This document shows positions 16,904 to 62,067 of a DNA stretch of 64,000 bases, in pieces. How positions within the stretch are numbered: position 1 is the stretch's first letter; each line of letters starts with the position of its first letter. The DNA comes from Alphaproteobacteria bacterium (GTDB lineage: Bacteria; Pseudomonadota; Alphaproteobacteria; CAAGCB01; CAG-977): the NCBI GenBank assembly GCA_045587165.1, contig JAZNBT010000055.1, forward strand, positions 7,017-71,016, in the 5' to 3' direction. The translations under genes and the position numbers were made by a program. The notes beneath the pieces were generated by a model. That model worked only from the letters and a program-made list of their open reading frames with translations. It searched no databases and was not told where the DNA came from.

Positions 16904-16904
16904 T

Positions 16905-17726: not shown

Positions 17727-17854
17727 TGTTTCCCCCTGATGTTTGATGAATTTTTTTAAAATAGGACGATATCCTTCTTTTTTAAAGAAAAACATTTGGG
17801 AAACGGCTCATTTTGGCATATAAAAGAAAAAGCAGAAAAAAAAACGAGGTTACC

Positions 17855-18841
17855 ATGTACGTTATCACAGGCGGCGCAGGCTTTTTGGGGTCCAACCTTG
17901 CGGCCGGTATCGAAGAACGGGAATTGGGCGAAATTGCCGTTGTCGATCGTTTTCAGTCGGACGATCGTTGGCGCAATATTGCAAAACGGTCTTTGCGCGA
18001 TATTATTTTTCCTGACAAGATTTTCGAATATTTGGATAAGCACGCCGGACGGATAGATGCCGTTTTGCATATCAATTATACCGGATTTTCTCAGGAAAGT
18101 GATGTTGATGCGTTGATTGACGAACGTATTCATTTGACATGGCGGTTATGGTCGTGGTGCGCACATCATCAGGTGCCGTTTATTTACGATTCGACGGCCG
18201 GTGTTTACGGAGACGGTTCTTTGGGGTTTAAAGATGACGACTCCGCCGAAGCATTGGCTAAGTTAAAACCGTTGTCCGCCGCCGCATGGACCAAACTGTT
18301 TTTGGATCGCAAAATCGTTGATACAATCAATCGAGGCGAGAATGCTCCGCCGCAGTGGATAGGATTGCGTTGTTTTAATCTGTACGGGCCGAACGAATAT
18401 CATAATACAACACATCAAAGCGTCATTCCCCGTATTTATCATGCGGCTAAAAACGGCAAATTATTTCCTTTGTTCAGATCTGAAAATCCGGATTATGAAG
18501 ACGGCGAACAAATGCGCGACTTTATGTGGGTTGAAGATACCGTTGATGTTATTTTATGGTTGCTGCAACATCCCGAAATCAGCGGATTGTTCAATATCGG
18601 TACCGGACAAGCCAGAACGTATGCGGATGTTTTGCGCGCCGTTTATGCGGCGTTGGATGAAAAACCGGAAATGGACTTTATGGATTTGCCGGCCGAAATC
18701 AAAAGACAATATCAGTACTTTACGCAGGCGGATATTCAAAAACTGCGTTCGGTCGGATATACAAAGCCGTTTACTTCATTGGAAGATGGTGTTTTCAAAT
18801 ATGTTCGATCTTATTTGGAAACGTCTGATCCGTATAAATAG
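17855..18841 (+). CDS. hldD: ADP-L-glycero-D-manno-heptose-6-epimerase
   Basis: SDR-type NAD-binding motif TGGAGFLGS. Start chosen at the ATG after an ACGAGG RBS; the track ORF starts 42 nt upstream. Confidence 0.8.
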   Translation: MYVITGGAGFLGSNLAAGIEERELGEIAVVDRFQSDDRWRNIAKRSLRDIIFPDKIFEYLDKHAGRIDAVLHINYTGFSQESDVDALIDERIHLTWRLWSWCAHHQVPFIYDSTAGVYGDGSLGFKDDDSAEALAKLKPLSAAAWTKLFLDRKIVDTINRGENAPPQWIGLRCFNLYGPNEYHNTTHQSVIPRIYHAAKNGKLFPLFRSENPDYEDGEQMRDFMWVEDTVDVILWLLQHPEISGLFNIGTGQARTYADVLRAVYAALDEKPEMDFMDLPAEIKRQYQYFTQADIQKLRSVGYTKPFTSLEDGVFKYVRSYLETSDPYK

Positions 18842-18849
18842 GACATGGC

Positions 18850-19653
18850 ATGACTTATCAGGGTATTCCTTTTCCCAATATTGATCCCGTTGCTTTGCAT
18901 ATAGGCAGTTTCGGTTTGCGTTGGTATTCGTTGGCGTATTTGGCCGGAATTGCTTTGGCGTGGTTTTTGGCACGGAAAATGGTTCGCCGTTATCCGAATC
19001 CGGTAACGGAAATAATGGTGGATGACGTTATTTTTTGGGCAACCGTCGGACTGATCGTCGGCGGACGATTGGGGTATGTATTATTTTATAATTTTACATA
19101 TTATACTGAAGATCCGTTGCAAATTTTTGCTTTATGGAAAGGCGGCATGTCATTCCACGGCGGTTTGATCGGCGTGATTATAGCGGTATATCTGTACGCC
19201 CGAAGCGTTAAAGTCGGTTTTTTTCAGTTTACGGATATTTTGGCCTGTGTCGTTCCGATCGGTTTATTTTTCGGGCGTTTGGCAAATTTCGCCAATTCGG
19301 AATTGTTCGGGCGTGTGACCGTTTCTGTCCCTTGGGCAGTTATTTTTCCGAATGGCGGACCGTTGCCGCGTCACCCCAGCCAGTTGTACGAAGCCGGATT
19401 TGAAGGAATTTTTCTGTTTTGCATTTTATATTCTTTATGGGCATGCAGCGTCTGGGTTCGAATCCGTCCGGGCTTTCTTTCCGGATTGTTTTTGTTCGGT
19501 TATGCCGTTGCGCGCGGTGTCGTCGAAAATTTCAGAGAACCGGATGCTCAAATCGGTTTTTTGTTCGCGCGCGTCACGATGGGGCAAATGTTGACCGTAC
19601 CGATGCTGATTTGCGGAATCTGGATAATGATATGGGCGGCGAAAAAAGTTTAG
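18850..19653 (+). CDS. lgt: Phosphatidylglycerol--prolipoprotein diacylglyceryl transferase
   Basis: 267 aa. Lgt signature and polytopic membrane profile. Confidence 0.9.
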   Translation: MTYQGIPFPNIDPVALHIGSFGLRWYSLAYLAGIALAWFLARKMVRRYPNPVTEIMVDDVIFWATVGLIVGGRLGYVLFYNFTYYTEDPLQIFALWKGGMSFHGGLIGVIIAVYLYARSVKVGFFQFTDILACVVPIGLFFGRLANFANSELFGRVTVSVPWAVIFPNGGPLPRHPSQLYEAGFEGIFLFCILYSLWACSVWVRIRPGFLSGLFLFGYAVARGVVENFREPDAQIGFLFARVTMGQMLTVPMLICGIWIMIWAAKKV

Positions 19654-19708
19654 ACATAAATCGTTTTCTCTGCTATTTCATAAAGACGGATCTTAAAGAC
19701 TCAAGGCT

Positions 19709-20470
19709 TTGAAAAATATGACAATTCATTTCAAAAGACGGGGTTTTTTTAAAACAATGACTTTACTTATTTATGTAAAGCTTATTGTTCCGATGCTGCG
19801 ATCAAAAAATTCGCCTGAAATAACGGCTCGCGGGGCGATGATCGGTATGGGCTGGGCCATGACGCCGTTGGTCGGGATTCAGATGTATCTGGTTTTTATG
19901 ACATGGCTTTTTACCAGAAAAGTTTTTAAATGGAATTTCAATTTGCCGGTCGGTTTGGCGTGGACATGGGTGACAAATGTTTTTACCGTACCGATGTTTT
20001 ACTATGCGTTTTATGTTACCGGCAAAGTGATGATGGGCGAATTTGCCGAAAGAACGACTTATGCCAAATTTTATGGTTTAATTAAAACGATTTTAAATGA
20101 AAACGGTATAGTTGAAGCTTTGAAAGCAACGGCCGCCGTTTTAATTAAAGACTGGGGCGTCGCCATGATGATCGGATCGATTCCTTGGATTATTTTCGGA
20201 GCCTGGGGGGCTTACGCATGGACGCTGTGGTATGTTCGCCGGCGTAAAGCGACTTTGGAACGCCGTTTGGAAAACCGTCAGAAAAAGCTTGAAAAGAAAA
20301 TCGAAACGACGCAAAAAAGATTCGAACGTAAAATCGAAAAAGCCGAACAGAAAATGGAAGTTAATCAGCTGAAGTTTGAAAATAAACAAAAAAAACTGGA
20401 AACAAAGCTGGAAAAAACGATCGCGGCTCAAGAAGAAGCCAGACTCGATAAATTCAGGGATGAAAATTAA
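19709..20470 (+). CDS. DUF2062-like polytopic membrane protein with C-terminal Lys/Glu-rich coiled-coil repeat extension
   Basis: 253 aa. N-terminal 170 aa hydrophobic; C-terminal 75 aa is a repetitive KKLEKKIE / KIEKAEQK-type heptad-like segment. Confidence 0.45.
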   Translation: MKNMTIHFKRRGFFKTMTLLIYVKLIVPMLRSKNSPEITARGAMIGMGWAMTPLVGIQMYLVFMTWLFTRKVFKWNFNLPVGLAWTWVTNVFTVPMFYYAFYVTGKVMMGEFAERTTYAKFYGLIKTILNENGIVEALKATAAVLIKDWGVAMMIGSIPWIIFGAWGAYAWTLWYVRRRKATLERRLENRQKKLEKKIETTQKRFERKIEKAEQKMEVNQLKFENKQKKLETKLEKTIAAQEEARLDKFRDEN

Positions 20471-42441: not shown

Positions 42442-43596
42442 TTACTTAACTGTTAACAGATTGTATGACGGAGATACCAGTAATGTATCTTTCTGAACGG
42501 TCAATGTGCTGTTTGCAGGAAGATTTACAGCTTCAAGCGCAACAGCATCCGACCGGAGAGATACCGCCGTATCAAGCGTGATCGAAGGAGTGTTGGGAAG
42601 CTCTGTATAGGTTGTCTCAATCAATTTGCTGACAGTCTTATCCGATCCCGTTAAGGTGCCGTCCAACTCGACGGCTCTGACAAAGCCCGTATATAAATAC
42701 GGTTTTCTTAACAGCGGTTTTTTAAAGTCGTCCATAACGACATCAACCGCTTCGAACTTCGGCAGGCAAAGATTTAATTTCCTGTTCCAGACCAAGGGTT
42801 TTGCCGTTATGTTTGTATTCAGCTTTGTATACAATGTATTCAATCTGGGCGTACTGGCAACAAGAGTTGGCAGACAGTCACCGCAGCAGGCTTTTCCGGT
42901 GCCGGATCCTACTGTGCATTGTTTTCCGAGCGGACATGTCACGCCGTCACACGGGCTTTTGCAACCGCCGTTTCCGTCGGCGACTTGTACGTTGCTGCAC
43001 TGCGGATCGTTTGTGGATCCCAACGGATACGGTATGCAACGACCGATGCTGCAATAATGTCCCGTACCGCATGTTTTGTTGGTGCACAGAGGGCGCTTGA
43101 TCAAACAGTAGCCTAATGTCGTACATATACCGTTGCTGCCGCAATCACTGTTTTGCGTGCATTGTACGCATTTTCCATTACCGACGCATTTTAAGCCTTT
43201 ATCGGTGCATATCTTTGCCACTTCTGCTCTTTCACAGGGTGTTTTACATGTTCCCTTGTGATTTTCAGCGATACATTGAGAGCCGCTTATGGATGAGCAA
43301 TCAACGTTTTTGCAAGCGGAAACGCACTCGCCGCCGGAGGCACATTTTTCCGTCAGTTCGCAATCGCTGTCGGAAAGACAAACGTCTACAGACGCCGTAC
43401 CGCCTCCACTGCCGAAACCGCCGGTTTCTTTTGACGCAGTGTATGCCGGAGCAGAAATAACAGTCGCGTTTCTACCGATTTTTACCGCTTTTGCGATCAT
43501 AAACGTATCATTTGAAAAAATGCCGGAAGTTTCCGTTGCCTGAACAGGGCTGGCGGCAAACCAGACGGCTGTAAAAAACAAAAACAGTTTTTTCAT
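42442..43596 (-). CDS. Secreted cysteine-rich repeat protein (EGF-like / granulin-like Cys spacing), paralog A
   Basis: 384 aa. Signal peptide (...ASPVQA/TE) and a Gly-rich linker. About 190 aa hold over 40 Cys in repeating C-x4-5-C-x5-C-x4-5-C units ending in CCGDC. The C-terminal Cys-free roughly 140 aa share motifs with the neighbouring paralog. Confidence 0.5.
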   Translation of the reverse strand: MKKLFLFFTAVWFAASPVQATETSGIFSNDTFMIAKAVKIGRNATVISAPAYTASKETGGFGSGGGTASVDVCLSDSDCELTEKCASGGECVSACKNVDCSSISGSQCIAENHKGTCKTPCERAEVAKICTDKGLKCVGNGKCVQCTQNSDCGSNGICTTLGYCLIKRPLCTNKTCGTGHYCSIGRCIPYPLGSTNDPQCSNVQVADGNGGCKSPCDGVTCPLGKQCTVGSGTGKACCGDCLPTLVASTPRLNTLYTKLNTNITAKPLVWNRKLNLCLPKFEAVDVVMDDFKKPLLRKPYLYTGFVRAVELDGTLTGSDKTVSKLIETTYTELPNTPSITLDTAVSLRSDAVALEAVNLPANSTLTVQKDTLLVSPSYNLLTVK

Positions 43597-43629: not shown

Positions 43630-44697
43630 TTATTTGGCAACTTTTAACGCTTGCCATTTCGCCTGAGCGGCGACGGTTGCTTCTTCCATCAACACTTTTT
43701 TATTCAGAATTTCTTCCGCAACTACGGGATCGTCTAGAACCAATTTGGCCGTTTCGTCCTTCAAGGCGGCGTCTGTGGCGACCAATTCGAAATTTTCGAT
43801 TTTATATCTGTCAAGCAACACGGGTTTTAACGTGATGCCGGCGTCCGTCGCATCTTTTTGATATTCGCAACAACCGTCGTTACATTCCTGTCCTTCGCCG
43901 CATTTCACGCCGATACATTTCAGGTCGAAATCGATGGGAATGATTTCTGGCTTGCGGCATAGTTTCAACCTGCGGAATTTCTTGTTTGTGATGAATTTGC
44001 TGACCAAAGTTGTATCCAATACGCATTTGCTAGGATATTTGGCACAGTATCCGGCTCTGTTTTTCAACGGGTTGATGGTTTCGACTTCGGGATCCCATTC
44101 CGCGATTTTATACAACTGCGGATGTTTGACCGGCGTAATAAACGGTTTGAATTCATCTACCGTAAGATCGACGGTTTTAAAGCCGTTGTCGTCGACTTCG
44201 AAATCCGTTTTGAATTCTGCCACGTCGACAACATCGCTGTCGAATGTAACGCAGGGAATCGTGTCTATTTGAATGGCCGTATTCGGTAAAGTGGCAACGA
44301 TATCGTCAGAAACCAAATCAACGTCAGTTCTTGTACTGTCGTTTATTTGATCTTCCAAAACAATCCAACGATCGCTCGCTGTAAGAGTTAACAAGTCGGC
44401 TTTTTTAAATTGTGTCGTCGCTACTCCATTAATTGTTCTGACGGTAGTTCCTGTCGTAGTCGTTGTTGTCCCTGTTGTCGGTGTTGTGGTGGTGGGTGTA
44501 TATGTCGAAGTTCCACCGCTGCTGCCGCCGCTGACTCGATCGTCAACAGCCACGGCATATGACGCCTGTTGTTTTGCTACAGTTCCGACAGACGTGCCAT
44601 CCAAATCGGTTGCCACGGCATTCGCCGTTGTTGGCAGGATTGAAACGGCTGCGGGCAGAATCCCTATCGCCGCTGCGTAAAGGAAAAATTTCTTCAT
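43630..44697 (-). CDS. Secreted protein with mucin-like poly-Thr tract and C-terminal Cys-rich module, paralog B
   Basis: 355 aa. Signal peptide (...TTANA/VA) and low-complexity SGGSSGGTSTYTPTTTTPTTGTTTTTTGTT. Shares the LPNT..I..DT and VD..DFK..L.KP.LY motifs with paralog A, and its C-terminus ends in a CGEGQECNDGCC cluster. Confidence 0.5.
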   Translation of the reverse strand: MKKFFLYAAAIGILPAAVSILPTTANAVATDLDGTSVGTVAKQQASYAVAVDDRVSGGSSGGTSTYTPTTTTPTTGTTTTTTGTTVRTINGVATTQFKKADLLTLTASDRWIVLEDQINDSTRTDVDLVSDDIVATLPNTAIQIDTIPCVTFDSDVVDVAEFKTDFEVDDNGFKTVDLTVDEFKPFITPVKHPQLYKIAEWDPEVETINPLKNRAGYCAKYPSKCVLDTTLVSKFITNKKFRRLKLCRKPEIIPIDFDLKCIGVKCGEGQECNDGCCEYQKDATDAGITLKPVLLDRYKIENFELVATDAALKDETAKLVLDDPVVAEEILNKKVLMEEATVAAQAKWQALKVAK

Positions 44698-44749
44698 TAT
44701 ATGAGCCTCCTCTAATGTCTATAAATTTTTCTATATAATGGTAACATTT

Positions 44750-44767
44750 AATTGTGGCAAAATTATG
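44750..44767. repeat. 18-bp direct repeat AATTGTGGCAAAATTATG, copy 1, flanking the G-tract
   Basis: Perfect copy of the 18-mer that recurs at 44836-44853. Confidence 0.8.
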
Positions 44768-44781
44768 TAAATAATATGTTC

Positions 44782-44794
44782 GGGGGGGGGGGGG
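44782..44794. repeat. Homopolymeric G13 tract (C13 on the coding strand), candidate slipped-strand phase-variation switch, about 85-97 bp upstream of the paralog B start
   Basis: 13 consecutive G in an otherwise AT-rich intergenic region; no other homopolymer longer than 9 was noticed in the window. Confidence 0.8.
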
Positions 44795-44835
44795 TAACTT
44801 ATTGATTTTAAAAGATATTGTTTTATTTTTATTGC

Positions 44836-44853
44836 AATTGTGGCAAAATTATG
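44836..44853. repeat. 18-bp direct repeat AATTGTGGCAAAATTATG, copy 2
   Basis: Perfect copy of the 18-mer at 44750-44767. Confidence 0.8.
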
Positions 44854-44956
44854 GCAAAAAATGACAAATTTGTCCGCCATTCTTTTGTTTATGAATTTTT
44901 GATCTTTCGGGCATATTTGAAAATTCCGCCCGTTATTGCAACATGACGCAAAGCAA

Positions 44957-45910
44957 TCAAGGGTGCTTTAATAAATCTTTCAACGATTTCCAATGGTTAA
45001 ACTGAAAATGCGCTTTAATTCTGTCATAGACGGCTTTGTATTTATATCTGCGCAATCCTGAAGAATTCCAGTAATGAAGATATATTTTGTAAGGTTTGAA
45101 AATTGCCGCCGATCCGAACGAATTCCACGGTTTTTCATAGGCGATATAATGAAAAATTCCTGTGTTGTTCATATCTGCGGAATGGAGTGTCCTGAAAATC
45201 TGATTGTTCCATTTCGGATGCAGCGTTACGATGTCATTATTAAATAAACAGTTTAACAAGTCTTGTTCGCCGTATCCTTTATATTTTTTCGGATTTTTTT
45301 CAAAACTGGAAATTATTTTTTCAAACAGATTGTTTTTTTTCCATTTATCCGTATTTATTAAAATAACTCCGGCGTTGTAATAAATATCCGTTGAGCATAT
45401 TCTTCTTAAATCCGGTGAAACATCTTCCACCATTGCGAAAAAATGATTTTTTAAATCCGTTTGGAATATTTCTTTTAAATCTTGCATTACCAACGTGTCC
45501 GCGTCCATATACAAAACTTTGCTTACTTCGTCCGGTAAAAGCGAAGGAATGAACAGCCGCATGAAAGAAATAAAGGATACATGCTTATATTGGGAAGAGT
45601 ACATATGTTTTATTAATGGAAAATATGTCTGATATAACGAAGATTGATGCGGGGAGATAAAATTTATTTTTTGATTTCTTTTTTCAACATACTTTTTCAT
45701 CAGTTTTTTATTTTTTTCGGAAACGTTGTTTTCCAAAATCCAAAAAGTATATTCTGAACCGGATTTGTTGTTTTTTAGAATGGAATTGATGGAAAGAAGT
45801 GTATAAACAGCATAGCTGTCACTGATATTATAGGCAACGTGGACGGCATCATTCGCGATTGTTTTGAATGAAATTAAAATAAATAAAAAAGCTAAAACAA
45901 ACCGTTTCAT
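44957..45910 (-). CDS. Glycosyltransferase family 8 protein (LgtC/glycogenin-like) with N-terminal signal anchor
   Basis: 317 aa. GT8 motifs including DXD (LYMDADTLV) and the C-terminal H-x-x-G-x-x-KPW motif (HYIAYEKPW). N-terminal hydrophobic segment MKRFVLAFLFILISF. Very AT-rich (about 30% GC). Confidence 0.7.
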   Translation of the reverse strand: MKRFVLAFLFILISFKTIANDAVHVAYNISDSYAVYTLLSINSILKNNKSGSEYTFWILENNVSEKNKKLMKKYVEKRNQKINFISPHQSSLYQTYFPLIKHMYSSQYKHVSFISFMRLFIPSLLPDEVSKVLYMDADTLVMQDLKEIFQTDLKNHFFAMVEDVSPDLRRICSTDIYYNAGVILINTDKWKKNNLFEKIISSFEKNPKKYKGYGEQDLLNCLFNNDIVTLHPKWNNQIFRTLHSADMNNTGIFHYIAYEKPWNSFGSAAIFKPYKIYLHYWNSSGLRRYKYKAVYDRIKAHFQFNHWKSLKDLLKHP

Positions 45911-45923
45911 CTGTTTCTCCGGA

Positions 45924-46403
45924 TTAAAAAATAAAATAATATCTCATCAAAAAACTTGTCAAAAGAATGAACGACGAGCCGATGTATTTTATATCTTTGT
46001 TCTTTAAAGACAGCAGTGAAACGGAAAAAATAAGAAAAACAACCGCCTTGTTATATTCCGTTTTTTCAAATTGAATTGCATTTATAAAACCTGTAAATCC
46101 TATGCAAAAAAGGATGAAAGATATAAATAAAACAGTATGATACTTGTAGTAATCTTTTTTATAGATGGATATGATAAATATGGATACAATAAATAAACCT
46201 AAAAACGGGAATAAAAGTGTAAGAATATATACTATGAAATCAAAACAAGACAGCAAGAATAAATCTGCCATGAAAAAAAGATTATATTTTGTAAAAAGAA
46301 TTATTATGCTGTAGAGAATTGTAAAAATAAGTAATTTCATTTTAAACTCCGGATACGGAAAAGATATTTCAGAAAAATCATACTGTCCACAACATTTTTT
46401 CAA
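45924..46403 (-). CDS. Small polytopic membrane protein (4 predicted TM helices), hypothetical
   Basis: 159 aa and very AT-rich; lies 13 bp upstream of the GT8 gene on the same strand. The true start is possibly the internal MKLLIF. Confidence 0.4.
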   Translation of the reverse strand: MKKCCGQYDFSEISFPYPEFKMKLLIFTILYSIIILFTKYNLFFMADLFLLSCFDFIVYILTLLFPFLGLFIVSIFIISIYKKDYYKYHTVLFISFILFCIGFTGFINAIQFEKTEYNKAVVFLIFSVSLLSLKNKDIKYIGSSFILLTSFLMRYYFIF

Positions 46404-46482
46404 TATGGAGCAAGTGTTTCAAATATCGGATGAGCTGTCGGCTTTTGCCGGCAGCCTGTGCCGTTATATACAGATTTCAATA

Positions 46483-46511
46483 AAAAAGCCCTCGTTTCAG
46501 AGGGCTTTTTT
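46483..46511 (-). terminator. Hairpin plus T-run immediately downstream of tRNA-Arg (minus strand)
   Basis: GCCCTCGTTTCAGAGGGC hairpin flanked by A/T runs. Confidence 0.6.
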
Positions 46512-46513
46512 AT

Positions 46514-46590
46514 TGGTGATCTCGCCGCGATTCGAACGCGGGACCCACAGCTTAGAAGGCTGTTGCTCTATCCAGCTGAGCTACGAGACC
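46514..46590 (-). tRNA. tRNA-Arg (anticodon TCT), CCA encoded
   Basis: Manual cloverleaf: acceptor GGTCTCG/CGAGATC, D-arm GCTCAGCTGGATAGAGC, anticodon loop CTTCTAA, T-arm GGGTCCCGCGTTCGAATCGCGGC, discriminator A plus CCA. Confidence 0.9.
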
Positions 46591-46727
46591 ACACACAAAT
46601 TTTTTTAACCCGTTTGGGGTCTTATATCAAGCTTTTTTTCTGTTCCGCGATAGTTATGTTTTGTTCTTGCGTCTTGATTTCTTTTCGATATAATCTTTTT
46701 TATAATAATTCTAAACAGAAAGGAAAC

Positions 46728-47228
46728 ATGTTCATGTCTAAGTCTTTAGAAAATTTAATGGCAGCTTTTGCCGGTGAATCTCAGGCGTTTCAGAAATATT
46801 CCGCTTTTGCCGTTCAAGCCGATAAGGAAGGGTTTGCTCAGGTGGCGAAATTGTTCCGCGCCGCTGCCGCCGCTGAAAAAGTTCACGCCGGAAATCATTT
46901 ACGTGCCGCCGGAAAAATTTTAACGACAAAAGATAATCTGCAAGAAGCCATTGACGGCGAAACATACGAATTCGAACAGATGTATCCGCCGATGATCGCC
47001 GATGCTCAGGCCGAAGGAAACAAAGCCGCCGAACGTACGTTTACCATGGCAAACGAAGTCGAAAAAACGCACGCCCGCCTGTATAAAGAGGCTCTGGACA
47101 ATCTGGGGAACAATCAGGCAGCGGATATTTATGTTTGTCCGGTTTGCGGTGAAACGGTTGTCGGATCTTTGCCCGATAATTGTCCCGTATGCAAAGCCGC
47201 CGGAAAAATGTTTGTGAAGATCGATTGA
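46728..47228 (+). CDS. rbr: Rubrerythrin (ferritin-like diiron domain plus C-terminal rubredoxin-like CxxC-x12-CxxC)
   Basis: E-x-x-H diiron motifs and C-terminal CPVCG...CPVCK. True start at the ATG after an AAGGAAA RBS; the track ORF is artificially extended across the tRNA. Confidence 0.85.
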   Translation: MFMSKSLENLMAAFAGESQAFQKYSAFAVQADKEGFAQVAKLFRAAAAAEKVHAGNHLRAAGKILTTKDNLQEAIDGETYEFEQMYPPMIADAQAEGNKAAERTFTMANEVEKTHARLYKEALDNLGNNQAADIYVCPVCGETVVGSLPDNCPVCKAAGKMFVKID

Positions 47229-47340: not shown

Positions 47341-50300
47341 ATGATGAAAAATCGATTTTTTATAATTTTATGTTTTTTTACATTTTCGGCGTTTCCTGCA
47401 TTTGCCGAAGAGTTAAACTACAATGATTCCGAGACATTTCCGGAATTTTTCAAAAACGTAGATGCTTTGATCGCGATCGGTGCGGATAAAGCCTATACCG
47501 GAGCGGACGGTACGGCATATTCCGGATTTTCAGGGGCGGGAGTGACCGTTGCCGTCATTGATAACGGGACAATGGCGAATCATCCGGATCTCGTGCAGTC
47601 ACACAGCACTCTGCAAAAACCGCAATTTAATATTTCCGCAGAAAAACACGGTACGCACGTCGCCGGTATCATTGCCGCGGAAAAAAACGGTTCCGGAATG
47701 CACGGGGTGGCATATAATTCCGATTTGTTGCTTTTTTCCACTTCACTGGAAGGCGGCTGCGGCGGCATGGAGGGCTGTTTGAGCCCGATGGCGGCTTTAG
47801 AGGCATTGTTGGACAGTGAATACGATGACGTTAAAATTATTAACAACAGTTGGGGGCTTTTTGAAGAGGATATCAACGAAAATGTATTGGCCAATATTCA
47901 TCGGTTGATGGATGCCATCGTCGCCAAAGATAAACTGATCGTTGCTTCCGCCGGAAATGATATGGAGTTGAATCCCAATACTTTTCCCGCCGGTGTCGGG
48001 CTGTTGGATAATTCCTTTAAAAATAATGTAATTAATGTTGTCGCTTATGATTCGTTCAAAAATCATTCCGCTAACGATTTTATCGCGTCTTTTTCCAATT
48101 TGGCAGGTGACGCAAAGGAATGGACTCTGGCCGCCCCCGGAAAAAATATTTATTCTTCGATTTTATATGATGAAACGGCAGACCCTCCCGCGGAAAAATT
48201 CGCTGAGATGAACGGTACATCCATGGCGGCGCCGCTTGTTTCCGGCGCGGCCGCTTTGGTTCAGGAAGCTTTCCCTTATTTAGGCGGCAAACAAATCGCC
48301 GATATTTTGTTTTCTACGGCAAAAAAGAAAAAGGATTTGGATGAAACAGGTTCGGGGCTGAGCCCGTATATGATTCAAAATTATTCGGGACAAACGCGTG
48401 TTTTATTCTTTAAAGATAATAAAGAGGGCACTACGTTTGAAGAAGCCAAAGCTGCCGCCGCTTCGCTCGGATACTCTTGCGGCGGATCCGTTTCCTGTCA
48501 CGAAGTCACGTTTGAAGATGTCTTCGGTCAGGGATTGTTGGATGTCGGGACGGCTGTCAAAGGCATTAAATATTTCGATGCGTCCAGATTGACGGCCGAA
48601 GATTTCGACATAGGAAAAAACCAGTTTTATTACAGTGTTGATACTTTGGGTATGGACAGCGTATGGAGCAACGATATCGGTCAGCTCCGATCAAGCGACG
48701 AATTGTATAAAACGGCGAATGTCGGTTTAAGAAAACGGGGTGAAGGCGTTTTAACCTTGGCCGGAGCAAATACGTTTTTAGGTACTTCGGTCGTTGACGG
48801 CGGTGAATTGAATTTGACGGGCAGCATGGAAGGCGATGTTGTTGTCAATACGGGAACGTTTTCCTTGTCGGATACCGGTTTGATGAACGGCAAAATAACG
48901 ACGAATGCCGACGGATTGTTGCGGATAGAAGATTCCGGAACGCTTTTAAATCTTGAAAATAACGGAAAGACTTTGGCCTCGGGCGGAAAATCAACGGGGA
49001 ATGTTGTTAATAACGGAACGTTTTCCGTCGCCGGAGGAGGTTTTATATCAAGCAGAACATTTACAAATAAAAACAATTTTCAGTTTGAAACCGACGGACG
49101 TTTTTCAGGCGTTTTAGATAACGAAGGGCTTGTTTCCGTTATAGGTAACAGCGAAATAGAAGGAAATCTTAACAACAAATCGTCCGGAATCGTTTTTGTG
49201 AACGCCACGATAGGAAATTCGTCGGCTATAGAGAATTATGGTCTTTTATCCGGTGAAGGCGACATAACGGGATCTGTTGTCAATCATGAATCGGGTACCG
49301 TCGCGACAACATTGAAGATTCATGATTTAAATTCTACCGGAAATATTCAGTTGTCCGAAAATCCGGACGGATTGGCCACTTTGAAGGTCAATACACTGAA
49401 TATTACAGGGGGGGCTTTGACGATCGCAAGCGGTAATATCAGCTATGAAAACGGGCAAACCTATTCGGTGATTGAATTTGATAATCTGACGAGTTTTGAA
49501 AATTTCGAACCGCAATCGAAACTGTCCGATTTTATTGTGGCGACGCCTCATGTAAACGGCAACCGTATTGAAGCCAGAATCGATTATTTGCGTATGGGCG
49601 AATCCGCTGCGACGGAAACATTTCTACCGGAAGAAAAAGTCGTCGCCGGTATTATGGATAAAATGTATTTTGACGACAGTAATAAGGATTTAAAAGGGTA
49701 TTTTTATCTGTCCGGCAAAGAACTGCAAAAGGAAATCAATACGATCCGTTCCAAAGCAAAGCCGATTCAAAAAGAACATTTACCGTTGGCGGGAACAATG
49801 TCTTCACAGGTTTCCAATCATTTATTCAAGGTAAATATGAATCGTGACGCGGCGACGTTTCATCGTCAATACAGACCGATGCAGCAATACAGGGGCCGAT
49901 ATTACAACCGCGGTTCCGTCGGCAGGTATTATCGCGGCAGATCCGGCGGCAGCGCTCCGAAAACGGGAAACAAGATCTGGGGGCAAATTCTGGGCGGCAG
50001 AGTTGTTGAGGAGGACAATGTTTCGGACAGGGGGAATGTCAAAACCAGAACGGTCGGCGGTATGATCGGATACGATCATGAAATTTCATCGCGATCTTTA
50101 ATCGGTATTACGGCCGGTTATGCTTCGGGGCGTTTGACGCAATCTTCGGATGAAATTAACGTTAATGATTATCGCGCGGGGATTTACACGGGATCCAGAT
50201 TCGGCAAACTGACGTTTAACACGATGTTGTTGGGCGGTTTTCAACAATATAAAAGCGAACGGTATACGGAAGCCGCCGGTTTAAATGCTTTGCATCGGGC

Positions 50301-50799
50301 TGATTTTAACGGATATTCCGCGGAATTGGATGTAAATCTGGGCTATGATTTCATGCGTTTGCCGTATCGGGATTATTCTTTTTATCTGCGATCCTATCTG
50401 GCGGCGAACGTCAATTATATTTCTCAGGATTCATATGAAGAAAAAGGGGAATCGCCAATGCTGTTAGGCGTTGACAGCATTAATAACACTTCTGTCAGTA
50501 TTCAGCCGGGGATTACGATCGGTTATACCTTTTCTCAGGCCGTTTTGACGGCTGATTTCGGTTATCAGCGGATTTTAAGCGGTGATTCCGTTCAATCTTC
50601 GGCTTATTTCCTTGCGGATACGGCAAGAACACCGTTTGAATCTTTATCGGCGGAATCGGATAAAGATTATATTAATGCCGGCGTCGGTCTGAAAACAAAC
50701 CTGACCCGTAACGTTGAATTGAATTTGTATGCCGGTATGCGGAAATCCGATAATACCGAGGCGATTAATTTCGCCGCATCGCTGTCGTATGCTTTTTAA
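47341..50799 (+). CDS. Subtilisin-like (peptidase S8) autotransporter, paralog 1
   Basis: 1152 aa. Signal peptide; S8 catalytic triad motifs (VAVIDNGT, HGTHVAGIIAA, GTSMAAPLVSGAAAL); Gly/Asn-rich beta-helix passenger repeats; Tyr/Arg-rich linker; about 280-aa C-terminal beta-barrel ending in SYAF. Confidence 0.85.
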   Translation: MMKNRFFIILCFFTFSAFPAFAEELNYNDSETFPEFFKNVDALIAIGADKAYTGADGTAYSGFSGAGVTVAVIDNGTMANHPDLVQSHSTLQKPQFNISAEKHGTHVAGIIAAEKNGSGMHGVAYNSDLLLFSTSLEGGCGGMEGCLSPMAALEALLDSEYDDVKIINNSWGLFEEDINENVLANIHRLMDAIVAKDKLIVASAGNDMELNPNTFPAGVGLLDNSFKNNVINVVAYDSFKNHSANDFIASFSNLAGDAKEWTLAAPGKNIYSSILYDETADPPAEKFAEMNGTSMAAPLVSGAAALVQEAFPYLGGKQIADILFSTAKKKKDLDETGSGLSPYMIQNYSGQTRVLFFKDNKEGTTFEEAKAAAASLGYSCGGSVSCHEVTFEDVFGQGLLDVGTAVKGIKYFDASRLTAEDFDIGKNQFYYSVDTLGMDSVWSNDIGQLRSSDELYKTANVGLRKRGEGVLTLAGANTFLGTSVVDGGELNLTGSMEGDVVVNTGTFSLSDTGLMNGKITTNADGLLRIEDSGTLLNLENNGKTLASGGKSTGNVVNNGTFSVAGGGFISSRTFTNKNNFQFETDGRFSGVLDNEGLVSVIGNSEIEGNLNNKSSGIVFVNATIGNSSAIENYGLLSGEGDITGSVVNHESGTVATTLKIHDLNSTGNIQLSENPDGLATLKVNTLNITGGALTIASGNISYENGQTYSVIEFDNLTSFENFEPQSKLSDFIVATPHVNGNRIEARIDYLRMGESAATETFLPEEKVVAGIMDKMYFDDSNKDLKGYFYLSGKELQKEINTIRSKAKPIQKEHLPLAGTMSSQVSNHLFKVNMNRDAATFHRQYRPMQQYRGRYYNRGSVGRYYRGRSGGSAPKTGNKIWGQILGGRVVEEDNVSDRGNVKTRTVGGMIGYDHEISSRSLIGITAGYASGRLTQSSDEINVNDYRAGIYTGSRFGKLTFNTMLLGGFQQYKSERYTEAAGLNALHRADFNGYSAELDVNLGYDFMRLPYRDYSFYLRSYLAANVNYISQDSYEEKGESPMLLGVDSINNTSVSIQPGITIGYTFSQAVLTADFGYQRILSGDSVQSSAYFLADTARTPFESLSAESDKDYINAGVGLKTNLTRNVELNLYAGMRKSDNTEAINFAASLSYAF

Positions 50800-50820: not shown

Positions 50821-53800
50821 GTGTTGAAATATAACCTTTTTCCTCTTTTCTTTGCTCTGCCGTTTTCCGCAGCCTTTGCGGCGGATACGGAATATTCCGT
50901 CAATCAAAAAGCTTATGACGCTTTAGGGGCGTCGCAGGCGTATGCGTTGGGCTTTACGGGGGCGGGCGTTACGGTCGCCGTTGTCGACAACGGAACGCTT
51001 GCCACGCATCAGGAATTGAAAGACAAATTCAGCGAACTGCAAAAGGACGAATACAATCATTATCAGGATATTGCGGATCACGGTACGCCGGTTTCCAGTA
51101 TAATTGCCGGAAAAAAGGACGGAACGGGCATGCACGGTATCGCATATGATTCGCAAATCGTCGCTTTCGCCGTAGAGTTGGACGACGGTGTGGATTGTCC
51201 GTCATGCTATCAAGGTTATGCGGAAGCTTGGAATATTCTGGCGACGGATGAATTTGACAGCGTTAAGATTATCAATAACAGTATCGGAAGTTATGATCAT
51301 TTACCTGATTCCACTCCTTCTTCCGATAGAAGAAGCGCGGCGGCGGCTCTGGTCGCAAAGGATAAATTGATTGTTGCGGGTGCGGGAAACGATACTTCTT
51401 TGTCTCCCGCCGACAGTCCGGCCGGGCTGCCTTATTATGATTCCAGTCTGAAGTATAATTTCATCAGCGCGATCGCGTATAATGCATATTATACCTCATC
51501 CAGTCCGTATTTTTTGGAAAGTTATACCAATTTGGCTCAATATGCGCAGGAATGGTCGTTAGCGGCACCGGTCGGATCTTTGAGGGCGGCATCGCATGAA
51601 GGGGATTCTTCCTATACGAATTTTGCCGGAACGTCTGCGGCGACACCGGTTATTTCAGGCGCTGCTGCCGTCGTATCCAGCGCTTTTCCTTATATGGGCG
51701 GGAAACAACTGGCTGACGTTTTGTTTTCCACTGCCGATAAAAATTATGCCGGTTTCAGTGATTATATGATTCAAAAAGATAACGGCAAATTGCAATTTTT
51801 GTTTTTCGGGTCGGCCGACGGATACGGCAAAGATTGGTCGGACGATGAAAAAAAAGCGATCGTTCAAGCGGAAATGGGCGGCGCGTATACGTGTTCGACT
51901 GAAGGCGTTTTTTGTGTCGACGTCAGTTATGCCGACGTTTTCGGCCAAGGGGTGTTAAATTTGGCCAATGCCGTCAAAGGCCCCGGCTATTTGGATGCCA
52001 ATCGTCTGAAGCTTTCCGATTTTACGGGAACGCAGTATGTTTATACGGTCGACGTGCAAGAATATGACAGCACGTGGAGCAATAATATCGGTCAGGTTAA
52101 ATCAAAAACCGAAAATATTGATGCGGACGTCGGCCTGAAAAAACAGGGGGCGGGAACTTTGACCCTTTCCGGACAGAATACGTATTTAGGGACGACGACG
52201 ATTGAAAGCGGTGCATTACGCTTGACAGGAACATTGGCCGGGGATGTGTCCGTCGCTTCGGGAACATTTTATTTAAACGGCGGAACCGTTTTCGGAAAAA
52301 CGGTTTCTTTGGCCGGCGGGGAAGTTAATGTTGACGGCGGAACGTTATTTTCGCTCAGCGGAGCCGGAACGGTTAACTTTTCGGCGGGATCTGTTCGAGA
52401 GGTGAAAAATCAGGGGAATTTTTACCTGACGGGAAGCGGGCTTATTGCCGATTCGGTCGAAAATACCGGACAATTTTATTTTAACGGCGGTTCGATAAAA
52501 GGTTCCGTTTCAAACGAAGGGAATTTTTATTTAAACAATCCGTCGTTTTCTCAAAAAATCCAAAATACGGGAACGGTTCAAAACAATACGTTATTGAAAG
52601 AAGGGTTGGTTATCGGCGGAACGTTGGTTAATCAGGCAGGAGGTCTTCTTTATTTGACTTCGACACCGGATACGTTGATCAATTACGGCGGAATAGTTTT
52701 ATCTCCTTCGTCGACAGATGCCTCCGTTTTACAGCAAATGACGGTTTCTCATTTAACGTTGGCCGGCGGAGGATTTGTGCTGGATACGAATAATTTGCCG
52801 GAATTCGGGGAAGGAATGTCCTATCAGATTTTAAAGGCTGAAAATTCTTTAAGTATCGGTGATGATTTTAAGCTTTCCGATCAGATCGGCCAATTTATTG
52901 TCGCCCGAACGAATGTAGACAACACGGAAAGAACGATTTCTTTATCATTGGAGTTTTTGCCTTTATCTTCAACGTCTTATGCTCCGAATTTAACGGAAAT
53001 GGAACGTCAAACGGCGACGGTGATCGATCGTTTGTTTAAAAACGAACATTTCAATGATTTCTCGGGATTTTATTTCTTGGATGAAAAAGGTTTGAAAGAT
53101 CGGATAAATAAAATAAAAGATCAGGTAAAACCGGTTCATTTTGCTTCTTTGCCGTTGTCAAACAGGTTGGGACGGACGATCCAAACACATCTTTTTGAAC
53201 GTCAAACCGGTAAAGATCCGTATCGGTATAACGGCGGACGGCGGTATTATGAACCGTTATCCCCCGGTCGCCATTCGCCGCGAGGGGACGTATACCGCAA
53301 TTATCGTCCCGGTAATACGCCTCAGGAAAATTATCGTCATGCCGTTCCGCGGACGAATGATGTGTACCGCAATTATCGTCCGGGTAATGCGCCTCAAGAA
53401 AATTATCGTTATTATGTGCCGCGCAAACGCGACGTTTACCGTAATTTCAGACCGAACGGTCGTTCCGGCGGACAATCGTTCGGTATGCGGACAAACGTTT
53501 GGGGGCAAATGTTGTATGCCAAAAGCACGTATGATGCCGATGAGCTTTCCGGCGGGACCGAAGCCGAGGGCACCGGCATAGGGCTGATGTTCGGATGGGA
53601 TTTCGTTTATTCGAAAGACTTTTTGTGGGGGGTGACGGCCGGATATGCACAGTCGTCCGTTGAACAAGACGACGACAATACCGATGTGACCGATTTGCGT
53701 TTCGGCGCCTATTTCAGTCGACAAAAGGATTTTTTGTCCGTTGACGGCGTATTGATGATCGGATTGCAAAGTTATGATAAAAAACGCGTTACGGATTTGC

Positions 53801-54345
53801 CGATGAAGACGTTTGAACATTCGGCGTCTTTTAACGGAACCAGTGTTGAGGCCGCTTTGAATGTAGGATATGACCTGCATCAGATTCCCATGCAGGCGGG
53901 CGATTGGTCTTTCAGGCCTTATATCGGTGCGACGGTTATACAGATGACGCAAGACGCCTACAGTGAAACAGGTTCATCTGATCTGAATTTATCCGTACAG
54001 GAAGCCAAAGACACTTCCGTTATTTTATCCCCCGGTTTAATTGCCGGATTTGTCGCCGCAGATACGAGTCTTTTCTTGATCAAGCCGGAATACGTCTTTT
54101 TTGATTTGCGTTATGATCAATATTTATCGGGGGGGAATGCCTCGACAAAAGCTTATTTCAGTGCGGATACGCTGCAGACGATGTTTGAATCTCCGGACAG
54201 TGAAGAAAAATCCGCGTTTACGTTCGGGGTAGGCGTTAACGGCCGTATATCTAAAAATACGCGTTTGAACTTGCTGTTCAGCAACAGAGCCGGTTCTAAA
54301 TCGTCTTCGCAGTCGATTTCGGCGACACTGATTCATTCGTTCTGA
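50821..54345 (+). CDS. Subtilisin-like (peptidase S8) autotransporter, paralog 2
   Basis: 1174 aa with GTG start after an AGAGGG RBS. S8 motifs (VAVVDNGT, HGTPVSSIIAG, GTSAATPVISGAAAV); beta-helix passenger; internal 72-bp tandem repeats; C-terminal barrel ending in IHSF. Confidence 0.85.
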   Translation: MLKYNLFPLFFALPFSAAFAADTEYSVNQKAYDALGASQAYALGFTGAGVTVAVVDNGTLATHQELKDKFSELQKDEYNHYQDIADHGTPVSSIIAGKKDGTGMHGIAYDSQIVAFAVELDDGVDCPSCYQGYAEAWNILATDEFDSVKIINNSIGSYDHLPDSTPSSDRRSAAAALVAKDKLIVAGAGNDTSLSPADSPAGLPYYDSSLKYNFISAIAYNAYYTSSSPYFLESYTNLAQYAQEWSLAAPVGSLRAASHEGDSSYTNFAGTSAATPVISGAAAVVSSAFPYMGGKQLADVLFSTADKNYAGFSDYMIQKDNGKLQFLFFGSADGYGKDWSDDEKKAIVQAEMGGAYTCSTEGVFCVDVSYADVFGQGVLNLANAVKGPGYLDANRLKLSDFTGTQYVYTVDVQEYDSTWSNNIGQVKSKTENIDADVGLKKQGAGTLTLSGQNTYLGTTTIESGALRLTGTLAGDVSVASGTFYLNGGTVFGKTVSLAGGEVNVDGGTLFSLSGAGTVNFSAGSVREVKNQGNFYLTGSGLIADSVENTGQFYFNGGSIKGSVSNEGNFYLNNPSFSQKIQNTGTVQNNTLLKEGLVIGGTLVNQAGGLLYLTSTPDTLINYGGIVLSPSSTDASVLQQMTVSHLTLAGGGFVLDTNNLPEFGEGMSYQILKAENSLSIGDDFKLSDQIGQFIVARTNVDNTERTISLSLEFLPLSSTSYAPNLTEMERQTATVIDRLFKNEHFNDFSGFYFLDEKGLKDRINKIKDQVKPVHFASLPLSNRLGRTIQTHLFERQTGKDPYRYNGGRRYYEPLSPGRHSPRGDVYRNYRPGNTPQENYRHAVPRTNDVYRNYRPGNAPQENYRYYVPRKRDVYRNFRPNGRSGGQSFGMRTNVWGQMLYAKSTYDADELSGGTEAEGTGIGLMFGWDFVYSKDFLWGVTAGYAQSSVEQDDDNTDVTDLRFGAYFSRQKDFLSVDGVLMIGLQSYDKKRVTDLPMKTFEHSASFNGTSVEAALNVGYDLHQIPMQAGDWSFRPYIGATVIQMTQDAYSETGSSDLNLSVQEAKDTSVILSPGLIAGFVAADTSLFLIKPEYVFFDLRYDQYLSGGNASTKAYFSADTLQTMFESPDSEEKSAFTFGVGVNGRISKNTRLNLLFSNRAGSKSSSQSISATLIHSF
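53287..53460 (+). repeat. About 2.4 tandem copies of a 72-bp coding repeat (DVYRNYRPGN(T/A)PQENYR) in the autotransporter 2 linker
   Basis: Units at 53287-53337 and 53359-53409 are near-identical (3 mismatches), and a degenerate third unit follows. Confidence 0.8.
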
Positions 54346-60331: not shown

Positions 60332-62067
60332 TGCAAAAACAGAATTTGTTAAAGCGGCTTCTTTCTTTTACCCGTCCTTATCTGCTTTATTTGATTCTGG
60401 CATTGATTTTGGCTGTTTTCAGCGTATCTTTGGCACTCTATGCGCCTGTGCTGACCGGTCGGGCTATTGATTTGGTCGTCGGTCGGGGGCAAGTGAATTT
60501 TGAAGCTTTAAAATCTGTTTTATTTACGCTTGGAACGGTTGTTGCCGCAACGTCGTTCAGTCAATGGCTGATGGGATTGTTTACCAATAAAATCACATAC
60601 CTGAGTGTGCGTGATATTCGTGTCAAAGCTTTTGAACGTTTGCAAAAAGTGCCGTTGCGATTTGTTGATTCGAATGCGCACGGCGATATTCTCAGCCGCG
60701 TTATCGTTGATGCGGAACAGGTGGCCGATGGTTTGTTGATGGGATTTACGCAGTTGTTTACCGGAATCGTGACGATTTTCGGAACGATCGGGTTTATGCT
60801 GGCGATTAATGTCAAAATTACGCTGTTGGTTGTTTTTGTGACCCCGCTTTCTTTGTTTGTTGCTCATTTTATTGCCAAACGGACGTTCAATCTGTTTAAA
60901 CTGCAATCCGAAACGCGCGGCGAAATGACGGCAATGATTGAAGAAAACGTCGGAAACATGAAATTGGTCAAAGCGTTCGGACGGGAATCGGCGTCAATCG
61001 CAAAGTTTGAAGAAATCAACGGTCGTCTGCGCATCTGCGGGATAAAGGCTTTATTCTTTTCTTCTATCACGAATCCGTGTACGCGGTTTGTCAACGGAGT
61101 CGTATATACGTTGGTCGGTATTGTCGGGGCATTGTCGGCAGTGGCCGGTGCGTTAAGCGTCGGACAGTTATCCTGCTTTTTAAGCTATGCAAATCAATAT
61201 ACGAAGCCGTTTAACGAAATTTCGGGCGTTATTGCCGAATTGCAAAGCGCTTTGGCTTCCGCGAAAAGGCTGTTTGAAATTATCGATACCGAGCCTGAGG
61301 CGCCGGATTCGAAAGACGCTTCCGTATTAACAAGGGCGGACGGATCGGTTTTTTTGGAAAAAGTTTCGTTTTCTTATGTGCCGGAAATTAAATTAATCGA
61401 GGATTTAAATCTGTCCGTGCAATCCGGTCAAAAAATAGCGATTGTCGGAAGGACGGGCTGCGGAAAAACGACTTTGATCAATTTATTAATGCGTTTTTAT
61501 GACGTTAATGCCGGTCGTATTGTCGTCAGCGGCAAAGAAATCAAAGAATTGACACGCGACAGTTTGCGTGCGTCATTCGGTATGGTATTGCAGGATACAT
61601 GGCTGAAATCGGGTACAATCCGAGAAAATATCGCGTACGGCCGGCCGAATGCGTCCGATTATGAAATTGTCAGCGCGGCCGTTGCGGCGCATGCCGACGG
61701 TTTTATCAAACGTTTGCCGAACGGGTATGATACGCCGATAGCCGAAGACGGCGGCAATCTTTCTCAAGGACAAAAACAGTTGTTGTGCATCGCGCGCGCG
61801 ATGCTTTCCCTGCCGCCCATGCTGATTTTGGATGAAGCGACCAGCTCGATAGACACGCGTACGGAAATTCATGTTCAAAAAGCATTTGATGAAATGATGC
61901 GGGGGCGGACAAGTTTTGTCGTTGCGCACCGGTTGTCGACAATCAGACGGGCGGATCAGATTTTGGTAATGGATGCCGGACGGATCATAGAGCAGGGAAA
62001 CCATTTGGAACTGCTTGCAAAAAAAGGATTTTACGCCGAACTGTACAACAGTCAGTTCGCCGTTTGA
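60331..62067 (+). CDS. ABC transporter permease/ATP-binding protein (type I exporter half-transporter), subunit 2
   Basis: Walker A GRTGCGKTT, signature LSQGQKQL, Walker B LILDEA. Start at the ATG overlapping the upstream stop; the track ORF starts 33 nt earlier. Confidence 0.88.
   Translation: MQKQNLLKRLLSFTRPYLLYLILALILAVFSVSLALYAPVLTGRAIDLVVGRGQVNFEALKSVLFTLGTVVAATSFSQWLMGLFTNKITYLSVRDIRVKAFERLQKVPLRFVDSNAHGDILSRVIVDAEQVADGLLMGFTQLFTGIVTIFGTIGFMLAINVKITLLVVFVTPLSLFVAHFIAKRTFNLFKLQSETRGEMTAMIEENVGNMKLVKAFGRESASIAKFEEINGRLRICGIKALFFSSITNPCTRFVNGVVYTLVGIVGALSAVAGALSVGQLSCFLSYANQYTKPFNEISGVIAELQSALASAKRLFEIIDTEPEAPDSKDASVLTRADGSVFLEKVSFSYVPEIKLIEDLNLSVQSGQKIAIVGRTGCGKTTLINLLMRFYDVNAGRIVVSGKEIKELTRDSLRASFGMVLQDTWLKSGTIRENIAYGRPNASDYEIVSAAVAAHADGFIKRLPNGYDTPIAEDGGNLSQGQKQLLCIARAMLSLPPMLILDEATSSIDTRTEIHVQKAFDEMMRGRTSFVVAHRLSTIRRADQILVMDAGRIIEQGNHLELLAKKGFYAELYNSQFAV

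Follow-up and report, generated by a model that had tools for sequence, protein, structure and literature searches.

Why would a bacterial glycosyltransferase of family 8 (GT8) carry a hydrophobic leader ahead of its catalytic domain, and on which side of the inner membrane would such an enzyme work? These questions are raised by a minus-strand gene in a 64,000-nucleotide stretch of DNA from an Alphaproteobacteria bacterium (GenBank assembly GCA_045587165.1, contig JAZNBT010000055.1, positions 7,017 to 71,016), the whole of which is called the window here. A sequence-only reading had picked out the leader and the AT-richness of the gene, and had suggested either acquisition from a eukaryotic host or protist or an exported, effector-type enzyme. 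The underlying observation holds, as the open reading frame (ORF) is intact, its start is backed by a ribosome-binding site, it matches the Pfam GT8 family (PF01501) and its leader is shared by a clade of bacterial relatives (the leader clade). The reading favoured here, to which we give a probability of about 0.5, is that the product is an LgtC-like retaining hexosyltransferase that is exported by Sec, usually with cleavage of its leader, and works from the periplasm on the inner membrane. There it would act with a four-helix membrane partner, and a major facilitator superfamily (MFS) protein, where present, would move donor or acceptor.

The gene and the parts of its product lie as follows.

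44957..45910, minus strand: GT8 glycosyltransferase gene, an intact ORF of 317 amino acids
45917..45920, minus strand: Shine-Dalgarno sequence GGAG, 6 nt upstream of the GT8 ATG
45854..45910, minus strand: leader, residues 1-19, from heuristic analysis of n-, h- and c-regions
45119..45844, minus strand: GT8 catalytic domain, residues 23-264, from alignment of the clade with LgtC
45497..45505, minus strand: DxD metal/diphosphate-binding motif, D136-A137-D138, invariant in 17/17 clade sequences
44969..45052, minus strand: C-terminal basic amphipathic helix, residues 287-314, from the AlphaFold2 model

In the ORF listing the product begins with MKRFVLAFLFILISFKTIANDA. Homologues are 316 to 320 residues long, so the window copy is full length, and an identical protein (P0001) is present in the public collection. 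The gap between the stop of the upstream co-directional ORF and the GT8 start is 13 nt; together with the GGAG at 6 nt, this lends credence to the start as annotated and so to the N-terminal extension.

The leader consists of an n-region MKR (+2), an h-region of 12 residues (F4-F15) and a c-region KTIA, with a signal-peptidase I site predicted heuristically at 19/20 (TIA|ND). The basic start and hydrophobic stretch described from the sequence are thus present, while the stretch has 12 uncharged residues and not 15, being interrupted by K16. About 19 to 22 residues precede the GT-A fold. As the PF01501 match starts at residue 24 and residue 2 of LgtC aligns to position 25 of the clade profile, the first 22 residues are an addition ahead of β-strand 1. 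This strand begins three residues past the predicted cleavage site, and the protein has no stem region. In the AlphaFold2 model the leader is a detached, low-confidence helix (residues 2-15) followed by a disordered linker (14-19).

Conservation of the leader is clear. It was kept in all 25 clade members scored and in 98 of the proteins retrieved later; nearly all more distant GT8s, examined in 80 genome loci, start at β-strand 1 with no leader. A hidden Markov model search of 1.84 billion representative sequences gave 27,895 GT8s, only about the top 60 of which align from the leader. The leader is conserved throughout the clade and is not a chance feature. Scoring of the 25 members followed heuristic n/h/c rules and not a trained predictor. 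By these rules the n-region is net-positive in every member (+1 to +3), the hydrophobic core spans 9 to 18 residues (mostly 10 to 15), no member (0/25) has a positive excess after the core, and 24/25 have a small-residue -3/-1 site, usually xxA|, placed 1 to 7 residues before β-strand 1. This pattern suggests a Sec-type signal peptide, from which export and cleavage would follow. Fringe members (L012/P0060, P0088, P0090, P0106, P0128 and P0139) have segments of 17 to 22 residues that look uncleaved; since the N-flank is still the more positive side, their orientation would be type II.

The PF01501 match spans residues 24-264 (E = 2.7e-45; 155 bits against a cut-off of 24.3) and covers profile positions 1-251 of 253. 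The sole NCBIfam match is to PRK15171, the equivalog for lipopolysaccharide (LPS) 3-α-galactosyltransferase; at 71.7 bits, far under the cut-off of 461, the protein falls outside that equivalog. The sequence-only reading was to be given up if the N-terminus proved uncleaved and non-membrane and the protein lay among proteobacterial LPS enzymes. What was found is a leader that looks cleaved or membrane-targeting and an enzyme remote from PRK15171. The AlphaFold2 model has a GT-A fold with a mean predicted local distance difference test score (pLDDT) of 85.3, exceeding 90 over most of the catalytic domain. In a Foldseek search with this model LgtC and WbbM rank first (E = 1e-18), followed by Anaerococcus 3tzt and GlyE (range 1e-18 to 1e-14, probability 1.00). 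D136-A137-D138 aligns with the D103-x-D105 region of LgtC, an EQD motif occupies residues 215-217 in the clade alignment, and H254, K260, P261 and W262 (H-x5-K-P-W), at least 90% conserved in the clade, are all present. The tail (residues 285-317) holds nine Lys/Arg against two Asp/Glu. On its sequence, the gene encodes an LgtC-like GT8 whose DxD/H/KPW catalytic set is intact.

A short basic N-terminus, a hydrophobic segment and a GT8 domain are also the outline of a Golgi-type enzyme held by a type-II signal anchor, and descent from a host or protist gene of this kind was one of the two original suggestions. Beyond that superficial architecture and the AT-richness nothing speaks for it, and it is scarcely credible. 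When the clade profile was searched against PDB, bacterial structures (LgtC 4.5e-32, WbbM 1e-27, Anaerococcus 3tzt 3e-25, GlyE 1e-23) had E-values 12 to 25 orders of magnitude below those of eukaryotic structures (LARGE1 3e-15; UGGT, glycogenin and GXYLT1 1e-6 to 1e-7), and Foldseek agrees. The window protein has a 12-residue core, with β-strand 1 close behind the predicted cleavage site, not an uncleaved anchor of about 20 residues followed by a stem, and genes of the clade sit in bacterial operons with overlapping genes.

Phylogeny points the same way. In a neighbour-joining tree for which the leader was cut off and only the catalytic domain used, leader-bearing GT8s are monophyletic (98/100 bootstrap), and the window protein forms a subclade with those of L082 and L083 (100/100) that is sister to Melainabacteria members, all of them inside bacterial GT8 diversity. 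The nearest relatives, taking one genome per GTDB species, come from Melainabacteria/Gastranaerophilales metagenome-assembled genomes of the gut (37 to 40% identity). The genomic G+C content (GC) is 0.31 to 0.35 in these assemblies and 0.28 to 0.35 across the Melainabacteria-type relatives, which the low GC of the GT8 gene matches. The closest proteins anywhere are P0002 and P0003 (59 to 60% identity), whose genes belong to the same kind of low-GC cassette, set in flanks of 44 to 52% GC. These results support a bacterial gene, horizontally acquired from an AT-rich bacterial lineage.

Two alphaproteobacterial loci outside the clade also encode unusual GT8s. L046 (Alphaproteobacteria bacterium PG1894_72) has giant multi-GT8 proteins of 794 and 1179 residues, the 794-residue one with a signal-peptide-like leader, and L073 (Rickettsiales UBA6177) has a GT8 with two N-terminal transmembrane (TM) segments. 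It is possible that these are effector-type or membrane-anchored GT8s of other alphaproteobacterial lineages.

The ORF directly upstream of the GT8 gene bears on where the enzyme might act.

45924..46340, minus strand: partner gene encoding a 138-residue polytopic membrane protein, its ATG at 46340 preceded by GGAG (6 nt)

Its exact product is already on record for the source contig. It is 47% identical to the partner in L083 and 32% to that in L082. Neither the window ORF nor five homologues matched any Pfam or NCBIfam family at E 0.01 to 1, and the window ORF did not match GtrA_DPMS_TM (PF04138). Members of this small-ORF family have a hydrophobic stub of 10 to 13 residues, an acidic residue, a 22-residue TM segment, a basic loop, a TM segment, an acidic or neutral loop, a TM segment, a second basic loop and a final TM segment; the first basic loop is KKDY-like (+2 to +5) and the second carries +2 to +3. 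The window protein reads TM0, hydrophobic stub, D34, 26-residue TM segment, KKDYYK loop, TM segment, loop, TM segment, KNKDIK loop and TM segment, an architecture also seen in Melainabacteria partners and in the C-terminal part of the fusion proteins P0038 and P0170. Small ORFs with an extra N-terminal TM segment, the window's included, begin with Lys or Arg.

A third gene is commonly linked to the other two. In eleven Melainabacteria-type loci and in L001 the GT8 gene is directly preceded by one encoding a 12-TM MFS_1 protein of about 400 residues (44 to 50% identical to the MFS protein of L083), and a small polytopic membrane ORF of 126 to 162 residues lies upstream in nine loci studied in detail. 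The order small ORF, MFS, GT8 comes with 4-bp overlaps and with flanks that differ between genomes; L082 and L083 have the order small ORF, GT8, MFS. In all, an MFS gene adjoins GT8 in 14/16 other loci. In PDB the MFS proteins match only NorA, an efflux pump. The idea of a glycolipid flippase like LtaA was dropped, as LtaA is absent from these matches. P0038 and P0170, 44% identical to each other, are natural fusions in which the leader and GT8 domain are followed by the small ORF at the C-terminus. The P0170 locus (L084) has no adjacent MFS gene, so MFS is not obligatory. Since MFS is missing from both the window and L084, and P0038 and P0170 fuse the other two components, the constant part of the module is the pair formed by GT8 and the small membrane protein.

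Other fusions occur in the clade: Pfam places a GT2 domain, Stealth CR1/CR2 domains or a second GT8 domain in the leader-clade members P0050, P0052 and P0026, which share the signal peptide. Export of these proteins, if it occurs, would put several activities that depend on nucleotide sugars outside the cytoplasm.

Four sequence-based lines of evidence agree with an extracytoplasmic catalytic domain. The first is the charge and cleavage pattern of the leader, with an N-flank more positive than the C-flank in every member, AxA-type sites that would be meaningful only on the periplasmic face, and cores that are mostly too short for a stable TM segment. The second is partner topology. As basic loops alternate with acidic or neutral ones, the positive-inside rule puts the N-terminus of the partner's four-helix core in the periplasm, and as this N-terminus is the fusion point in P0038 and P0170, GT8 would lie outside, opposite the basic cytoplasmic loops. 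The third is the AlphaFold2 model of P0038, in which stub, acidic residue and TM segment make up a single unbroken helix (321-357) where the two parts join, not a hairpin, with four membrane helices in total, although pLDDT in the membrane part is only 51 to 75 and the alignment there is shallow. The fourth is cysteine depletion: leader-bearing GT8 domains contain 0.57% Cys (n = 98) against 1.69% in leaderless ones (n = 37; Mann-Whitney p = 3e-11), in samples that are not phylogenetically independent, so that the contrast is confounded by phylogeny.

The limits of the fusion model and of the cysteine contrast weigh against export, as do several further points. The case for export comes from heuristic rules. 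Cytoplasmic GT8s have a UDP-binding signature (IDNNY/DxxY, DxD, DQD, H...KPW) that the clade retains, together with a basic tail at the C-terminus like that of LgtC, and GT2 or Stealth domains are joined to some of its members; in characterised bacteria, GT8s with this signature, tails of this type and GT2 and Stealth domains are all cytoplasmic. We know of no periplasmic nucleotide-sugar pool, or exporter, in bacteria. An exported enzyme that still looks UDP-sugar dependent therefore needs a donor supply of an unrecognised kind. The window copy, in addition, stands without MFS and has two substitutions in its nucleotide-binding motif (D30S and S32, below), so that this particular GT8 may be impaired in its present host.

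Much of this fits the main rival, an enzyme that faces the other way, with the leader as an uncleaved anchor, the catalytic domain in the cytoplasm, a UDP-sugar used to build a glycolipid or an LPS/lipooligosaccharide (LOS) intermediate, and the MFS and/or small protein flipping the product. Such an arrangement needs no new donor supply, and the long, uncleaved-looking segments of the fringe members suit it. Pairing of a glycosyltransferase with an MFS protein is known for glycolipid synthesis and flipping, and YpfP with LtaA and GtrB with GtrA are models for it. The four lines set out above all run contrary to it, and the MFS proteins resemble NorA-type efflux pumps. We regard a cytoplasmic catalytic domain as possible but on the unlikely side.

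In the favoured reading, a periplasmic enzyme, the steps we infer are these. A Sec-type signal peptide would target the GT8 domain to the periplasmic side of the inner membrane and would be cleaved after an AxA-like site in most members, remaining as an uncleaved type-II anchor in a few. GT8 would then work in complex with the small four-helix inner-membrane protein, supplied by the adjacent gene or as a C-terminal fusion, and in most genomes an efflux-type MFS protein is present as well. These partners may tether the enzyme to the membrane and bring donor or acceptor across, the probable target being an envelope glycan or glycolipid. The module would be a compact, AT-rich mobile operon typical of gut Melainabacteria, the window having a two-gene version of it beside a tRNA-Arg gene of an uncultured alphaproteobacterium.

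An exported GT-A enzyme with a DxD motif in a host-associated (gut or rumen) organism also recalls secreted glycosyltransferases that modify host proteins, such as the clostridial, Legionella or NleB-type GT-A toxins. Export or anchoring, one half of the original suggestion, is what the four lines above point to; the effector half found no backing in a host-targeting domain or a secretion link, and the partners reside in the inner membrane, with one of them also occurring as a fusion to the enzyme. A Sec leader reaches the periplasm only, no type II, III or IV secretion system or autotransporter domain is linked, and the protein, with only 317 residues, carries no extra targeting or translocation domain. 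Its nearest relatives are LOS/LPS-type enzymes, and the autotransporters that neighbour it in the window are not conserved beside GT8 in other loci. An effector role is very improbable.

The cassette stands in a small region of foreign composition.

44873..46470, no strand assigned: low-GC islet of about 1.6 kb holding two genes only, GC about 0.31 against 0.447 for the window
46514..46590, minus strand: tRNA-Arg(TCT) flanking the islet (ARAGORN; Rfam RF00005, 65.9 bits)
46478-46515: tRNA-Arg terminator hairpin, a perfect 16-bp inverted repeat (I5)

The islet lies directly 3' of tRNA-Arg(TCT), its right edge just inside the tRNA terminator. The GT8 gene had been described as having the lowest GC in the window, but at 0.325 (z = -4.6, n = 57 window genes) it is the second most AT-rich; the adjacent 138-residue ORF is lower still (0.249, z = -7.4). 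Related alphaproteobacterial contigs (L085-L090) share with the window the mreBCD-PBP2-RodA genes (about 81% DNA identity) and the downstream genes for secreted proteins. Their homology stops at about 44872, past which a CDGSH gene and genes for type I secretion follow, with no GT8 cassette. Relatives run into different genes at this point, and the empty-site comparison fixes the left border alone. L082 and L083 carry the low-GC cassette in flanks of 44 to 52% GC. Judged from the GC deviation of both genes, the GC contrast in L082 and L083 and absence at this position in relatives of the host, the cassette is horizontally transferred.

Neither an integrase nor a direct repeat of the tRNA 3' end (an att-like repeat) was found in 44500-46750, and an integrase-mediated tRNA island was ruled out, leaving only tRNA adjacency and foreign composition. 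A phage search found no relative in IMG/VR, and annotated phages and plasmids have generic GT8s only (≤ 32% identity); these results and the lack of a GtrA match in the small ORF ruled out a phage or plasmid serotype-conversion cassette. In place of the islet and tRNA-Arg, L085-L089 have at about 16700-20200 a zf-CDGSH gene, then a type I secretion set of AprE-like adaptor, ATP-binding cassette (ABC) exporter and C39 peptidase, and also a resolvase, which shows that this lineage is prone to rearrangement downstream of its RodA block. Elsewhere in the window ARAGORN calls a 'tRNA-???' with a four-base anticodon (tgtg) at 61348-61437 (plus strand), where Rfam at its gathering threshold gives no tRNA; this call is probably a false positive.

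Transfer raises the question of whether the window copy still works, whichever side of the membrane it faces. It may be a decaying or non-functional remnant of a three-gene operon that has lost its MFS and suffered damage to its nucleotide-binding motif. A tblastn search of the 64-kb window found no MFS homologue, in contrast to the 14/16 other loci that have one next to GT8, and a promoter scan gave no candidate for the cassette above shuffled expectation. The nucleotide-binding motif is an atypical ISDSY (residues 29-33) where the clade consensus is IDNNY: at position 30, aligned to Asp8 of LgtC, the window has Ser and 15/15 relatives have Asp (D30S), and at position 32 it has Ser where 13/15 have Asn. 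ISDSY does keep Y33 of the D-x-x-Y motif (D8/N10/Y11 in LgtC), its Asp having moved by one position. Against decay, neither ORF is truncated and each has a good ribosome-binding site, DxD, H254 and KPW are intact, and 47/53 clade-conserved positions are kept, within the range of other members (0 to 10 deviations). L084 likewise has no adjacent MFS, which in the window's genome could lie elsewhere. On balance a dead remnant seems unlikely.

Genes on both sides of the islet encode proteins with signal peptides. The secreted proteins of 43630-44697 and 42442-43596 (both minus strand) have clear signal peptides and belong to no Pfam or NCBIfam family; a Thr/Gly-rich linker (TPTTTTPTTGTTTTTTGTT) marks one of them and a high Cys content the other, and both have diverged orthologues in related strains. 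The Thr-rich linker TPTTTTPTTGTTTTTTGTT is a plausible candidate substrate for O-glycosylation. A 13-base poly-G tract (poly-C on the coding strand) at 44782-44794, some 85 to 95 nt upstream of the gene at 43630..44697, is the only G/C run of at least nine bases in the window. It adjoins a conserved ATTGTGGCAAAATTATG motif that is duplicated as a 25-nt direct repeat (44750-44774 and 44836-44860). L085-L089 have the same tract in the same place (about 15750-15800), with lengths of 15, 15, 6, 19 and 14, and it is a candidate phase-variation switch for the secreted protein. On the other side, just past tRNA-Arg and a rubrerythrin gene, two tandem plus-strand ORFs (47341-50799 and 50821-54345) encode proteins of about 1150 to 1170 residues with signal peptides, which by eye seem to combine a subtilisin-like (S8) passenger with a C-terminal autotransporter β-domain. 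A link between GT8 and these autotransporters, of the α6GlcT-like protein-glycosylation kind, was dropped, since each genome has different flanks around the module.

The GT8 fold, family and chemistry are already known. A literature search found no report of Sec-leader or periplasmic GT8s, nor of a GT8/small ORF/MFS module; as far as we could find, the export signal, the four-helix partner with its Rosetta-stone fusions, the MFS linkage and the cross-phylum mobility are undescribed. In the textbook division of labour, Leloir enzymes (GT-A or GT-B) work in the cytoplasm with nucleotide sugars, and GT-C enzymes in the periplasm with lipid-linked ones. If truly periplasmic, the leader clade would break this division, and an unrecognised route would have to move activated sugars or acceptors across the inner membrane. 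A bolder proposal, which we consider doubtful, is that Sec-exported Leloir GT-A enzymes (GT8, in some cases joined to GT2 or Stealth domains), supplied with activated sugar by MFS and/or the four-helix protein, form a bacterial counterpart of glycosylation in the Golgi lumen. This would amount to periplasmic glycosylation without polyprenol-linked donors or GT-C enzymes, spreading between phyla as a two- or three-gene cassette. Even with its enzyme facing the cytoplasm, the cassette would be an uncharacterised, mobile, cross-phylum system for envelope modification in gut Melainabacteria and Alphaproteobacteria without cultured models.

Among known systems the best match in sequence and structure is to LgtC, the α-1,4-galactosyltransferase of Neisseria meningitidis (PDB 1GA8/1G9R), and to the GT8 domain of WbbM. 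Common to all three are the GT-A fold, DxD, His...KPW, (E/D)QD and a C-terminal basic helix for membrane association, of which helix 287-314 is the window analogue. LgtC, with about 20 to 22% identity, has no leader, starts at β-strand 1 and works at the cytoplasmic face of the inner membrane, whereas the window GT8 has a leader and dedicated partners. The LPS enzymes WaaI/WaaJ/WaaO (RfaI/RfaJ; PRK15171) belong to the same Pfam family but are leaderless, and the window gene is outside any waa-cluster context.

The eukaryotic enzymes GXYLT1, LARGE1, GAUT/GATL and UGGT likewise have an extracytoplasmic GT8 domain behind an N-terminal hydrophobic segment. They are distant (E 1e-15 to 1e-6), and their 20-residue anchor contrasts with the mostly AxA-cleavable leader of the clade. 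Donors in the eukaryotic Golgi and endoplasmic reticulum come through nucleotide-sugar transporters of the drug/metabolite transporter (DMT) superfamily, not MFS.

The GtrA/GtrB/GtrC cassettes are also small, mobile and often adjacent to tRNA genes, and they too combine a small four-helix membrane protein with a transferase on the periplasmic side. The Gtr transferase, however, is a polytopic GT-C enzyme using undecaprenyl-phosphate-glucose, while that of the window is a soluble GT-A GT8; the window's small ORF does not match PF04138, and no phage or plasmid was found to carry the clade. In Staphylococcus aureus an operon pairs the glycosyltransferase YpfP/UgtP with the 12-TM MFS protein LtaA, in the manner of the GT8/MFS pairs. 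YpfP differs in being a cytoplasmic GT28 enzyme with no leader, and the MFS proteins of the clade are nearest to NorA, not to LtaA.

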